From NCBI GenBank assembly GCA_036676985.1, contig JAKFBU010000029.1, positions 1-12,958 of the forward strand: a DNA stretch of 12,958 nucleotides, given 5' to 3'. Position 1 is the first letter of the stretch. Each line of letters starts with the position of its first letter. Made by a program: the position numbers and the translations under genes. This document shows positions 3,917 to 9,412 of this stretch, one piece after another. Source of the stretch: Candidatus Sericytochromatia bacterium. GTDB lineage: Bacteria; Cyanobacteriota; Sericytochromatia; S15B-MN24; UBA4093. The notes under the pieces are model-generated. The model saw nothing but the letters and a program-made list of their open reading frames with translations. It made no database searches and was not told the DNA's origin.

Positions 3917-6900
3917 TTGTCCGATATGAGTTCGAAGTTCGACTACATCAAGGTCGGCATCGCGTCCGCCGAGCGGATTCTGTCCTGGTCGCGCGGGGAG
4001 GTGACCAAGCCCGAGACGATCAACTACCGCACCCTCAAGCCCGAGCGCGACGGCCTGTTCTGCGAACGGATCTTTGGGCCGGCCAAGGACTGGGAGTGCC
4101 ACTGCGGCAAGTACAAGCGCGTCCGCCACAAGGGCATCATCTGCGAGCGCTGCGGCGTCGAGGTCACCGACTCCAAGGTCCGCCGCTACCGCATGGGCCA
4201 CATCAAGCTGGCCGCCCCGGTCGCGCACATCTGGTACCTGAAGGGCATCCCCTCGTACCTGAGCCTCCTGCTCGACATCCCCCTGCGCTCGCTGGAGGAC
4301 GTCGTCTACTTCAATTCGTACCTGGTCCTCGATCCCGGTAACACCAACCTCGAGAAGCGCCAGACCATCACCGAGGACGACTTCGATACGCTCGAGGCCA
4401 ACGCCGAGGCCGAGTTCGTCGCCAAGATGGGCGCCGAGGCCGTCAAGGAGCTCCTCCACTCGATGGACCTCAACGAGCTCTCCAACGAGCTCAAGAGCGA
4501 GCTGGTCACCTCGACCGGCCAGAAGCGCGCCAAGGCCATCAAGCGCCTGCGCGTCGTGGACGCCTTCCTCTCGGCGGGCAGCCACCCCTCGGCCATGATC
4601 CTCGACGTGATCCCGGTCATCCCGCCCGACCTGCGTCCCATGGTCCAGCTCGACGGCGGCCGCTTCGCCACGTCGGACCTCAACGACCTGTACCGCCGGG
4701 TGATCAACCGCAACAACCGCCTCTATCGCCTCAAGGAGATGGGCGCGCCGGACATCATCATCCGCAACGAGATGCGCATGCTGCAGGAGGCCGTCGACGC
4801 CCTGATCGACAACGGCCGCCGCGGTCGCGCCGTCGTGGGCCCCAACAACCGCCCGCTCAAGAGCCTCTCGGACATCATCGAGGGCAAGCAGGGCCGCTTC
4901 CGTCAGAACCTCCTGGGTAAGCGCGTCGACTACTCGGGCCGTTCGGTCATCGTCGTCGGCCCCAACCTCAAGCTGCACCAGTGCGGTCTGCCCAAGGAGA
5001 TGGCCCTCGAGCTCTTCAAGCCGTTCGTCATGAACAAGCTCGTCGAGCGCGGCATCGTCCAGAACATCAAGAGCGCCAAGAAGAAGATCGAGCGCGGCGA
5101 GACCATCGTCTGGGACATCCTGGAAGAGGTCATCAAGGGCCACCCGGTCCTCCTCAACCGCGCTCCGACCCTGCACCGCCTGGGCATCCAGGCCTTCGAG
5201 CCGGTGCTCGTCGAGGGCCGCGCCATCCAGATCCACCCGCTCGTCTGTACCGCCTTCAATGCGGACTTCGACGGTGACCAGATGGCCGTCCACGTGCCCC
5301 TGTCGGTCGAGGCCCAGACCGAGGCGCGGTTGCTGATGCTCGCCTCCAACAACGTCCTGTCGCCCGCGACCGGTCACCCGATCATCACGCCGACCCAGGA
5401 CATGGTCCTCGGCATCTACTACCTCTCGGTCGAGAACACCACCGACACCAAGGGGCAGGGGATGTACTTCAAGGACTTCACCGATGCGCTCGCCGCCCAT
5501 GCGGCCGGCCTGGTGGGGACCCATGCCAAGATCGCCGTCCGCTTCGACGGTCAGAAGGTCGACATGTACGGGCCGGAGATCCTGGATCTCTTCCCGGAGG
5601 ATCGCCGCGACTTCTTCCGCGCCAAGTTCGAGGCCGGCAAGATCCTCGTGACGACCATCGGTCGCATCATCCTCAACGAGCACGTGCCCGACAGCTTCCC
5701 CTTCTACAACGTCATCGTCGACAAGAAGGTCCTGGGCCGCATCATCATGCGCGCCTTCAACGAGATCTCGTCGGCGGCGGCCGCGGAGCTGGCGGACAGC
5801 CTCAAGACGCTCGGCTTCCGCTGGGCGACCCGCGCCGGCGTCTCCATGGCCATCGCGGACCTGACGGTCCCCGAGGACAAGAAGGCGATCCTGCGGGCCG
5901 CCGAGGAGAAGATCGAGGCCTCGCGGCGCGCCTACCTGCGCGGCGAGATCACCGAGGTCGAGCGCCACGCGCACGCCATCGACACCTGGGCGGAGACCAC
6001 CGAGGTCCTTACGGCCAAGGTCGTCAGCGACTTCGATCGCCTCAACTCGGTCTACATGATGGCCTTCTCCGGCGCCCGCGGTAACCTCTCGCAGGTCCGT
6101 CAGCTGGTCGGCATGCGCGGCCTGATGGCCGATCCGTCGGGCCGAATCATCGACCTTCCGATTAAGTCGAACTTCCGCGAGGGTCTGAACGTCACGGAGT
6201 ACGTCATCTCGTCGTACGGCGCCCGTAAGGGGCTGGTCGACACGGCGCTCCGCACCGCCGACTCCGGGTACCTCACCCGCCGTCTGGCGGACGTCGCCCA
6301 GGACGTCATCGTCCGCGACGAGGACTGCCAGACCGACCGCGGCCTCAAGCTCGGCTCGGTCAAGGACGGCGACAGCGTCGTCATCCCGATGATCGACCGC
6401 ATCGTCGGCCGCGTCATCAACGAGGACCTGGTCTCCCGCAAGACGGGCGAGGTCCTCTTGCCCCGCGGCACCATGGTCGTGCCGGCCATGGTCGAGAAGT
6501 TCAAGGAAGCGGATATCGAGACGATCCTCGTCCGCAGCCCGCTGACCTGCCAGAGCAAGCACGGCGTCTGCCGCTACTGCTACGGCTGGAGCCTCACGAA
6601 CAACAAGCTCGTCGACGTCGGCGAGGCGGTGGGCATCATCGCCGCGCAGTCCATCGGTGAGCCCGGCACCCAGCTGACGATGCGGACGTTCCACACGGGC
6701 GGCGTCTTCACCAAGGGGGCCTCCAACACGGCCATCAAGGCCAAGCACGTGGGCACCATGGAGATCGGCGAGGTCGCCACCCGCGAGTTCCGCACCAAGC
6801 ACGGTCAGATCGTCCTCGTCACCGAGCAGGAGACGACCGTCAAGGTCAAGGCCGCGAAGAAGACCCACGAGATCACCATCCCGGTGGGCTTCGAGATCCG

Positions 6901-9412
6901 CGTGGCGGACGGCGACCACGTCAAGGCCGACACCGTCATCGCCGAGAGCATCGTCGAGATGGGTCGCACCTCGCGCAAGAACCTCGAGAAGGGCTTCAAG
7001 GACATCTCGGCCGACATCAGCGGCCAGGTCGAGTTCTCGGGCTTCGCCTCGGAAGAGAAGCGCGATCGCCAGGGCAACGTCTCCAAGACGTCGAACAAGT
7101 CGGGCGTCATCTGGATCCTCCAGGGCGACGTCTTCAACCTGCCGACCGGTGCTGCCCTCAAGGTGACGGACGGCCAGGACGTCACGGAGAACGACGTCAT
7201 CGCCGAGACGACGGTGGCCACCGAGCACGGCGGCCAGCTGCGCATCGGCACGGACGTCGAGCTCGAGACGGTCGGCGGCCAGTCCGTCGTCAAGAGCGGC
7301 CGCGACATCTCGATCGTCACGGCCGAGCTCGCCTGCACCGAGTGCGACGTCCTGCCCGGCAAGAAGGAGCCCATCCTCCGGGTGGGCGCCGAGGGCAAGG
7401 AGCGGACCTACAACCTCAAGGTCGCCGATGGCCAGCGCGTCGAGAGCGATGCCATCATCGCCGAGAGCGTCGAGGAAGGCCACCAGGTGCCTTCGGGCGG
7501 CGAGATCCGCTACATCGACGTCCACACCGCCGAGCGTCGTCTCTTGACCAAGCCGTCGAAGCTCATGTTCATCCCCGAGGAGCGCATCTCGGTCAACAAG
7601 GACATCTCCCTGTTGAACCCGCGCGACAAGAACAAGCCGGATTCCGGCCTGTTCGCCACGGGCGATGCGGTCATGGCCGGCGACGAGGTCGTCAAGGACA
7701 TCACCGTCAAGAACAACGGCGTGCTCGAGGTCGTCGAGGACAACAACATCGTGCGTGAGGTCGTGGTCTACCCCGGCACGCGCTACGAGGTCCCCTTCGA
7801 GCTCGAGCTCAAGGTGGAGGACGGCAAGTACGTCGAGCCCGGCACGGAGCTCGCCGAGGGCATCAAGTCCAAGGAAGGTGGCGTCATCCACATCCTGACC
7901 ATGCCCGAGGAGGCCGCCAGCCAGGTCGTCGTCGTGCGCCGGACCATGGAGCTCCACGTGACGCCCGACGTCGAGACGATCCCGTTCGCGGCCTCGTCCG
8001 GCGACATCAGCCTCGAGTTCTTCACCCGCCTCTTGGTCAAGGACGGCGAGCGGGTCAAGAACGGCGCTCCGGTCGCCAAGACCGAGGTGGTCCTCAAGAT
8101 CACCGGCGCTCTGGCCAGCCTGGCTGGCAAGGTCGAGCTGCCCGAGGTGGGCGCCGAGACGCGCGGTGGCTTCAAGATCACGATCCTGGAGTCCATGAGC
8201 CTGCGCCGGGACATCCCGGGCGTGGCCAAGCGCGCCGACCAGCGCGAGCAGACGGTCGTCACCTACCTGCTCGCCAACCCCGGCGACCAGGTGAAGCCCG
8301 GCACCACCGTGATCCGCACCGAGATCCTGAGCCACGCCTCGGGGTCGGTGCAGTTCCCGGCCGGTGGCGCGCCCAGCCGTCTCTTGATCGTCACCCCCGA
8401 CCAGGAGGTCGCGGTCAAGGTCGCCAAGGCCGCCGTGGACGACGGTGCGTTCGTCCAGGAAGGCACCGACCTCGGCGGCGCCACCGCGCCCATCTCGGGC
8501 AAGGTGCGCGTCGAGAAGGGCGCTGTCTACATCCGCCACGCGCGGCCGTACCTCATCTCGGCGGGCACTCAGCTGCTCACCGACGACGGGGACATGGTCC
8601 TGCGGGGTGAGACGCTCGCAACGCTCGTCTACGACCGCGTCAAGACCGGAGACATCATCCAGGGTCTGCCCCGCGTCGAGGAACTGCTCGAGGGCCGCAA
8701 GCCCAAGGAGAGCGCCCTCATCGCGGAGCGCGGCGGCGTCGTCAAGCTCCTCTCCGATCCGGACGAGGCGACCAAGGTCTACGTGGTCACCGACACCGGC
8801 GAAGAGGAGTACGCCCTGCCCCCCGGCGGCCGTCTGCTCGTCATCGATGGCGAGACCATCGAGACCGGCGATCTGCTCACGGAGGGCCCGGTCAACCCGC
8901 ACGACGTGCTGCGGGTCCAGGGCGTCGAGTCGGTCCAGAAGTACCTCGTCGACGAGGTCCAGATGGTCTACCGCTCGCAGGGCGTCGAGATCGCCGACAA
9001 GCACATCGAAGTCATCGTCCGTCAGATGAGCCGCAAGATGCGGGTCGACGATCCGGGCGACACCACGATGCTGCCCGGCGAGCTCGTCGACACCCTCGAC
9101 GTGGAGCGCCTGCAGGCCGAGGCCGCCGATCGCGGCGGTGCCCAGGCCATCGTGCACCCGATCCTCTTGGGTATCACCAAGGCCTCGCTGAACACCGAGA
9201 GCTTCGTCTCGGCCGCCTCCTTCCAGGAGACGACCCGCGTGCTCACGGAAGCCGCCATCGAGGGCAAGAAGGACTGGCTGCACGGCCTCAAGGAGAACGT
9301 CGTCATCGGTCGACTCATCCCGGCCGGTACCGGCTTCTTCCAGGTCGAAGAAGAGGAGGAGGCCCCGATCTCCGAGCCGATGCTCATCGGCCAGCCGGAA
9401 ACGGTGTCGTAG
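3917..9412 (+). CDS. rpoC: DNA-directed RNA polymerase subunit beta-prime, unsplit (RpoC1 + RpoC2 equivalents in one ORF), with a large SI3 insertion; 1831 aa
   Basis: N-terminal Zn ribbon CHC...CERC; catalytic NADFDGD (5258-5278); bridge helix [23 protein letters not shown]; second Zn site; trigger loop [16 protein letters not shown] ... [15 protein letters not shown]-terminal [16 protein letters not shown] and [17 protein letters not shown]. The TTG start follows the SD AGGGAG (3901-3906); ATG 3926 is an alternative. Confidence 0.99.
6704..8650 (+). other. SI3 (beta-prime trigger-loop) lineage-specific insertion, 649 codons, built of sandwich-barrel hybrid motif repeats
   Basis: It lies between MRTFHTGG (6680-6703) and DIIQGLPR (from 8651). 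Nine V-x-D-G-x-x-V-x-x-G/D-like cores start at 6902, 7163, 7421, 7652, 7814, 8036, 8273, 8435 and 8579. Confidence 0.9.

Follow-up and report, generated by a model that had tools for sequence, protein, structure and literature searches.

An unsplit RNA polymerase beta-prime gene carrying a cyanobacterial-type SI3 in Sericytochromatia

The rpoC gene of a Candidatus Sericytochromatia bacterium raises the question of which came first in the RNA polymerase of cyanobacteria, the giant sequence insertion 3 (SI3) in the trigger loop of the beta-prime subunit or the division of that subunit between two genes, rpoC1 and rpoC2. The gene lies at 3917..9412 on the forward strand of contig JAKFBU010000029.1 (assembly GCA_036676985.1); the entire contig of 12,958 bp is the window analysed here, and it belongs to a genome of 4.68 Mb in 79 contigs that is scored as 100% complete with 5% contamination. 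An earlier note on the window had proposed that rpoC is uninterrupted, that it encodes a full cyanobacterial-type SI3, that the host is a non-photosynthetic sister lineage of the cyanobacteria and that the expansion of SI3 preceded the rpoC1/rpoC2 fission. Our analysis points to an insertion older than the division of the gene, and this interpretation stands, with the addition that the split is shared by most Vampirovibrionia and was several times undone there. We consider the window to hold a normal Sericytochromatia rpoC encoding a single-chain beta-prime with a full SI3, whose unsplit state is primary and inherited from the ancestor of the phylum, and we give this reading a probability of roughly 0.8.

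Gene structure and the trigger-loop insertion

The open reading frame (ORF) list and translation gave rpoC as one uninterrupted ORF of 1831 codons with a TTG start and zero stops, as had been claimed. Because homologues begin with MSS(K/R)FDYIK, three codons into the TTG frame, translation probably starts at the ATG at 3926 and the protein would have 1828 aa. The junction stretch was found exactly where the read-through had been placed (aa 579-604, nt 5651-5728), and instead of the split rpoC1/rpoC2 arrangement the frame continued across it without a stop or a restart signal. Alignment of the junction delimited an 8-residue linker, EHVPDSFP (aa 588-595, 5678..5701), between GRIILN and FYNVIVDKK. 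The motif NADFDGDQM, which we take to be the catalytic motif, was located by sequence at aa 448-456 (5258..5284), and the segments that are presumably the N-terminal and C-terminal arms of the trigger loop were located in the same way at aa 909-930 (6641..6706) and aa 1580-1592 (8654..8692). The gap between the two arms is 649 residues long.

The protein was identified using profile searches. It matched TIGR02386 (rpoC) with 1706.2 bits against a cut-off of 963.5, all of the Pfam Rpb1 domains 1-5 were present, and TIGR02388 (rpoC2_cyan) was matched with 1241.7 bits over profile positions 2-1229 of 1230. The TIGR02388 cut-off is by itself unspecific, being passed by 6 of 14 control genomes, and the coverage of the inner profile is the informative feature. 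TIGR02387 (rpoC1_cyan) was matched over profile positions 1-562 of 619 with a score of 969.3, slightly below the cut-off of 975.9, and this score was rejected as a discriminator of the split state.

The insertion between the trigger-loop arms (aa 931-1579, 6707..8653) aligned end to end with residues 353-990 of S. elongatus beta-prime-2 (8syi_Z, E 2.2e-75) and was also aligned to the T. elongatus Si3 crystal chain (8emb_A, E 4.3e-77) and to 8h3v_B and 8gzg_Z. Since the alignment to solved cyanobacterial chains runs through the whole of the 649 residues, the insertion is identified as the cyanobacterial SI3 at full size. The homology to the cyanobacterial element, whose absence the earlier note had named as a ground for rejecting its proposal, extends over the whole insertion. 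By homology the SI3 is predicted to fold into eight to nine nested sandwich-barrel hybrid motif (SBHM) modules. The gene would therefore yield one beta-prime polypeptide of ~1830 residues (~200 kDa), with a standard bacterial core and this modular SI3 set into the trigger loop. By analogy with the solved cyanobacterial enzymes, the SI3 would ride on the trigger loop in each nucleotide-addition cycle, over the rim-helix/secondary-channel side.

The size of the insertion was then compared among groups. The trigger-loop arms are separated by 4 residues in Firmicutes-type proteins, by 217-225 residues in Margulisbacteria/Saganbacteria and by 622-666 residues in all three cyanobacterial classes (643-651 in the other Sericytochromatia, 622-657 in Vampirovibrionia and 666 in one Cyanobacteriia row). 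The SI3 residues of Margulisbacteria can be aligned with the outer regions of the window SI3 (positions 931-1059 and 1503-1579 of the protein), and their rpoC2_cyan match covers only positions 2 to ~422 and ~893 to 1229, with the inner ~430 aa of the SI3 missing. This stepwise series places the expansion on the stem of the phylum.

Distribution of the split and anatomy of the junction

The closest full-length homologues of the window protein were 1800-1960 aa long with 50-87% identity at ~100% coverage, and most are named Candidatus Sericytochromatia by NCBI. Membership of this class follows from these NCBI names of the nearest relatives together with branching outside Vampirovibrionia+Cyanobacteriia in the trees described below. 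In a search of representative proteins, the sole representative above 50% identity was an unsplit Sericytochromatia protein, and the next two were RpoC2 proteins of Vampirovibrionia and Cyanobacteriia. Photosystem reaction-centre genes (PsaA/PsaB, PF00223; Photo_RC, PF00124) gave no match in the window genome, and a Synechococcus control was positive for both families. The names of the homologues and the lack of a photosystem match bear out a non-photosynthetic sister-lineage host, for which Sericytochromatia had been offered as the example. Three proteins of the non-photosynthetic lineages carry photosynthetic labels at NCBI (P0004, Stenomitos sp.; P0012, Oscillatoriaceae; P0165, Planktothrix sp.). 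The first of these, P0004, shares 95% identity with the window protein, and the three labels probably reflect mislabelled metagenome bins.

The state of rpoC and the length of SI3 were tabulated by class, as had been suggested for the window. Among 41 Sericytochromatia genomes 33 were matched, 25 of them (the window genome included) with open frames of 1804-1959 aa. Five further genomes (G001, G010, G034, G036 and G039) are cut by contig ends or N-runs, yet their frames run open through 200 aa or more upstream of the junction, and three (G026, G038 and G040) are cut too near the junction to be informative. The gene was unsplit in 30/33 genomes, a junction stop was seen in none, and the SI3 measured 622-666 aa throughout the phylum. 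In a 301-genome sample of the phylum all 114 matches listed above 1850 bits (Cyanobacteriia) sit in frames of 1278-1452 aa, that is, in a split rpoC2. Across 141 Vampirovibrionia genomes 113 of the 122 near-full-length matches, whose scores of ~1160-1380 bits resemble that of the window, were in frames of 1198-1379 aa. The remaining nine were in frames of 1838-1862 aa (eight from family f45 and one from f27), and a tenth unsplit-type match, also from f45, lay in a 1710-aa frame cut by its contig. The NCBI names of relatives identify this third class as Melainabacteria/Vampirovibrionia, f42 as Obscuribacterales and f45 as Caenarcaniphilales; the Obscuribacterales proteins, 1225-1230 aa long, are annotated "subunit beta-double-prime". 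The beta-prime of Margulisbacteria/Saganbacteria (59/61 genomes matched) was unsplit and 1377-1466 aa long in most of the 59 matching genomes. Four genomes of that phylum (G427, G437, G457 and G461) have beta-prime open frames of 2283-2324 aa with ~2.5 kb between rpoC2_cyan profile positions 74 and 80, suggesting a large extra insertion right past the junction region.

Split loci were examined in 14 Vampirovibrionia and 6 Cyanobacteriia. In all of them rpoC1 ended with TAA or TAG 8-15 aa past GRIIxN, and rpoC2 began 0-110 nt downstream with an ATG shortly before FxNxxVDKK. The RpoC1 tails at these loci resemble N-x-T-[VI]-[RQ]-x-A-L. As the stop and the restart occupy the same position in both classes, the gene is split at the same loop in both, and because this holds for most Vampirovibrionia the beta-prime split is not restricted to oxygenic cyanobacteria. 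The starting premise, that the split belongs to oxygenic cyanobacteria and plastids, was therefore correct for Cyanobacteriia and incomplete in leaving out the non-photosynthetic Vampirovibrionia. In three Cyanobacteriia (L040, L041 and L044) rpoC2 follows directly after rpoB and rpoC1 is located elsewhere.

Unsplit genes were then compared by their linkers. The window protein and all Sericytochromatia examined have an 8-residue linker of the form E-x-L-P-x-x-F-P. Tallying the linkers of 68 unsplit proteins with an SI3 (the query and 67 homologues) separated two types: 47/68 had 8-aa linkers, all with Pro at position 4 in the motif x-x-[LFIV]-P, and 21/68 had linkers of 14-27 aa with the RpoC1-tail motif. 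The same Pro motif was present in the Firmicutes-type outgroups P0073, P0079, P0093 and P0109, which are of the 8-aa class, and P0078, which has 10 aa. In both length and motif the Sericytochromatia linker is, as read from these alignments, that of an ordinary unsplit bacterial beta-prime. One Vampirovibrionia protein with a long linker (G331/P0048, 27 residues) still holds the former Met and the head of RpoC2 and was thus plainly fused through a lost stop codon. Three Margulisbacteria/Saganbacteria proteins (P0083, P0090 and P0108) have a 17-18-aa linker, Y-T-L-x-R-V-L..., which is RpoC1-tail-like though the gene is unsplit; convergence or an older expansion of the loop may account for it.

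Polarity of the split and competing explanations

Three trees were built, with the junction columns removed from each, following the suggestion that an RpoB/RpoC phylogeny would place the host. The first used the RpoC core with SI3 removed (51 rows), the second the RpoC core with extra unsplit Vampirovibrionia (45 rows) and the third RpoB+RpoC including SI3 (32 rows, 2834 columns, rooted on Margulisbacteria). All three gave the same order, Margulisbacteria, then Sericytochromatia, then a clade of Cyanobacteriia and Vampirovibrionia, and this last clade, which holds the split forms and leaves Sericytochromatia outside, was supported by SH-like approximate likelihood ratio test (SH-aLRT) values of 97, 98 and 99. 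Within Vampirovibrionia the second tree interspersed unsplit forms with split ones at no fewer than six positions, requiring at least seven changes of state, and in the third tree the Caenarcaniphilales were nested among split lineages behind branches with support of 95, 99 and 100. Forcing the split Vampirovibrionia into one clade, a group named after the tree had been seen, was rejected (delta lnL 121, p-AU 1.8e-5 in the approximately unbiased (AU) test). Because the Caenarcaniphilales combine this nesting with a long linker that keeps an RpoC1 tail, they look like re-fusions, and the unsplit Vampirovibrionia forms with these two features are most likely re-fused genes. The repeated re-fusion suggests that the split is close to neutral.

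These re-fusions also show that a divided rpoC can be rejoined, and the same could have happened to Sericytochromatia if the split predates the radiation of the phylum or if the class is sister to Vampirovibrionia, a topology that the AU tests leave open; the gene would then have been rejoined on the Sericytochromatia stem and its linker trimmed to 8 aa. We regard this as unlikely. All 21 of the long-linker forms keep 14-27 aa and the RpoC1 tail, whereas 47/47 linkers of the Sericytochromatia type are exactly 8 aa with the outgroup motif, and a deletion would be unlikely to recreate x-x-[LIFV]-P. Moreover, no split form was seen among 33 Sericytochromatia genomes and the best trees place the class outside the split clade. 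The argument that a short linker favours the ancestral state held when it was set against real re-fusions, whose linkers are long. It is less probable still that one gene gives two chains, either by cleavage after translation of the whole protein or from an internal start producing a separate C-terminal chain; a GTG codon does occur within the linker, and nothing direct was found in favour of either route. The linker is of the ordinary bacterial type with no stop or restart signal. Bacteria with an ordinary 8-residue linker generally make a single beta-prime. In addition, Synechocystis beta-prime-1 and beta-prime-2 joined artificially by a six-residue linker are described as functional in the available part of PMC10120043.

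A false fusion, made by a chimeric contig or by a stop codon lost in assembly, would be conceivable for a 13-kb contig from a metagenome-assembled genome whose estimated contamination is 5%, but we consider the chance of it negligible. Coverage across the junction (5640-5740) had been proposed as a check, and the region was crossed without gaps by contigs of three other studies and of another sample of the possible source study, with no indels listed; bridging contigs included X2 record 8 (5269-6200), X7 record 23 (5453-6193) and X5 record 15 (5630-5982). Substitutions in the linker codons yielded ERLPESFP, the linker of a close relative, and created no stop. The same structure was present in thirty related genomes. 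The junction is not an assembly artefact.

Several points weigh against an inherited, never-split gene. The AU tests did not reject Sericytochromatia+Vampirovibrionia (p 0.186 for the RpoC core, p 0.088 for RpoB+RpoC), and under that topology the polarity is ambiguous. The trees were built from polymerase genes only, with "quick" searches and SH-aLRT support without bootstrap. Linker length is homoplastic, as the 17-18 aa linker of unsplit Margulisbacteria demonstrates. Class names follow the NCBI labels of homologues rather than formal placement, and 8 of the 41 Sericytochromatia genomes had no match, in addition to the three uninformative ones. The single 200-kDa chain is predicted from the gene, and the only aligned "RNA" run (X5) is probably DNA; runs labelled RNA hold 6-11% of the sampled words. 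With these points included, we still favour the unsplit state as primary: Sericytochromatia rpoC was most likely never split, and the claim that SI3 expanded before the rpoC1/rpoC2 fission is supported by the trees, with the AU values above as its caveat.

Gre factors, the surrounding locus and known systems

Gre factors were surveyed in the same lineages. The N-terminal and C-terminal domains of GreA/GreB were not found in the window genome. The C-terminal domain was detected in 1/41 Sericytochromatia genomes, and a GreA/GreB domain in 1/141 Vampirovibrionia genomes, where it lies inside a 1470-aa frame (G413:C90:72759-72971), unlike a normal 160-aa Gre factor. GreA was present in 4/5 of the nearest Margulisbacteria genomes and in 11/61 of the phylum sample, whose completeness is unknown. 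Controls behaved as expected, with nine bacterial control genomes positive (E. coli has Gre factors) and Synechococcus negative. The absence of Gre goes along with a large SI3 and with neither the split nor photosynthesis, and this link is a correlation only because the presence of Gre is patchy in the sister phylum Margulisbacteria. The window genome also encodes a 122-aa C4 zinc-finger protein of the DksA/TraR family (G000:C73:43616-43720; L138:465-833), which gave full-length matches to the DksA-like and YteA models at scores below their cut-offs. This protein is of interest because it has been suggested that a large SI3 keeps binders out of the secondary channel.

The traits can be arranged in a sequence of events. 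A small SI3 of ~220 aa, as in Margulisbacteria, would have come first and would have expanded to ~650 aa on the Cyanobacteriota stem, at which point Gre factors, too, cease to be found. The rpoC gene would next have been divided, in the loop past GRIIxN, on the stem of Vampirovibrionia+Cyanobacteriia, and several secondary re-fusions would then have occurred within Vampirovibrionia. On balance, and with less assurance than for the window gene itself, we think it probable that the giant SI3 and the lack of Gre factors both go back to the phylum's stem, that the split occurred once and later, in a non-photosynthetic ancestor of Vampirovibrionia and Cyanobacteriia, and was reversed at least six times in Vampirovibrionia, that none of these events was tied to oxygenic photosynthesis, and that the linker (8 aa with a Pro at position 4 versus 14-27 aa with an RpoC1 tail) is a signature by which never-split genes can be told from re-fused ones.

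The gene order along the contig is rpoB-rpoC-rpsL-rpsG-fusA-tuf, all on the forward strand. The rpoB gene (RNA polymerase beta; 514..3813, GTG start, 1099 aa) is 60-93% identical to the RpoB encoded upstream of rpoC in related loci. Downstream of rpoC lie rpsL (ribosomal protein S12; 9527..9946, PF00164, E 6.9e-42), rpsG (ribosomal protein S7; 9965..10435, PF00177, E 2.8e-58), fusA (elongation factor G; 10509..12596, Pfam EF-G domains) and the 5' part of tuf (EF-Tu; 12725..12958, from the ORF and Pfam), which is ended by the contig edge. The 103-nt spacer between rpoB and rpoC holds a strong, GC-rich hairpin (3822..3879, forward strand) with no T-run after it, and the fold of 3811-3920 reached -48 kcal/mol (z -4.4; 0/200 shuffles equally stable); a processing or attenuation site is possible. 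Positions 1-513, upstream of rpoB at the start of the contig, have a G+C content of 0.55 against ~0.66 and contain no convincing ORF. An Rfam search of the window gave no match, the hairpin and positions 1-513 included. In one Sericytochromatia genome (L014, G027:C139) rpoB is present as two adjacent in-frame pieces of 466 and 654 aa with a stop between them, which may reflect an error in sequencing, a genuine interruption or recoding.

In the literature a possible link is drawn between the giant SI3, the split of beta-prime and the loss of Gre/DksA. The available parts of the structural papers suggest that the lack of Gre/DksA, like the split, "may be intrinsically linked to Si3 acquisition" (PMC10895346) and that the site for Gre may have been blocked by a large SI3 (PMC7026648), and photosynthesis-related reasons for the loss of Gre, such as photodamage, are also offered (PMC10895346, PMC7026648). 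No paper dealing with SI3 in Sericytochromatia or Vampirovibrionia, or with whether their rpoC is split, was found in the open-access literature, supplements (e.g. Fig. S1 of PMC10120043) not covered, and the available parts of PMC10895346, PMC10120043, PMC7026648, PMC8190605, PMC11515920 and 10.64898/2026.06.23.732312 do not mention these classes in the context of the split or SI3. The unsplit SI3-bearing state is already implicit in public annotations. Sericytochromatia provide a natural enzyme with a giant SI3, no Gre, no split and no photosynthesis, in which these traits are separated. SI3 could thus expand without the split, and it is SI3, not the chemistry of light or oxygen, that the lack of Gre follows.

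Among known systems, the E. coli beta-prime resembles the window protein in being unsplit with SBHM modules in the trigger loop, and the cores align over aa 5-1009; its SI3 is given as 188 aa with two SBHM in the available part of 10.1101/2021.01.27.428476. The window insertion is 3.5 times larger, and E. coli retains Gre factors. Margulisbacteria/Saganbacteria (WOR-1), sister to the cyanobacterial clade, also have an unsplit beta-prime with SI3 at the same trigger-loop site, but theirs is without the inner ~430 aa (profile ~423-892 unmatched), their linker is 17-18 aa long and GreA occurs in some of their genomes. The unsplit beta-prime of Caenarcaniphilales and other Vampirovibrionia (P0051, P0052; G331/P0048) is likewise a single chain of 1809-1873 aa with a large SI3, but its linker, of 14-27 aa, bears the C-terminal tail motif of RpoC1, and these forms are nested among split lineages. 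The cyanobacterial gamma/beta-prime-1 and beta-prime-2 (8SYI, 8GZG, 8EMB) share the trigger-loop site, the length of the SI3 (649 vs ~640 aa, aligned end to end), the full rpoC2_cyan profile and the lack of a detectable Gre factor. In contrast to rpoC1 + rpoC2, the window has one gene in one frame, an 8-residue canonical bacterial linker at the split loop and a host with no photosystem genes. A further counterpart is the engineered Synechocystis fusion (Shen et al. 2023, PMC10120043), likewise a single-chain beta-prime with a large SI3, with a six-residue linker and, according to the available part of that paper, a structure unperturbed at the split site; the same source reports problems in assembling the split subunits in E. 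coli. A native single-chain enzyme is now available for expression and may avoid those problems. Unlike the man-made fusion, the form in the window is natural and class-wide and has its native bacterial linker.

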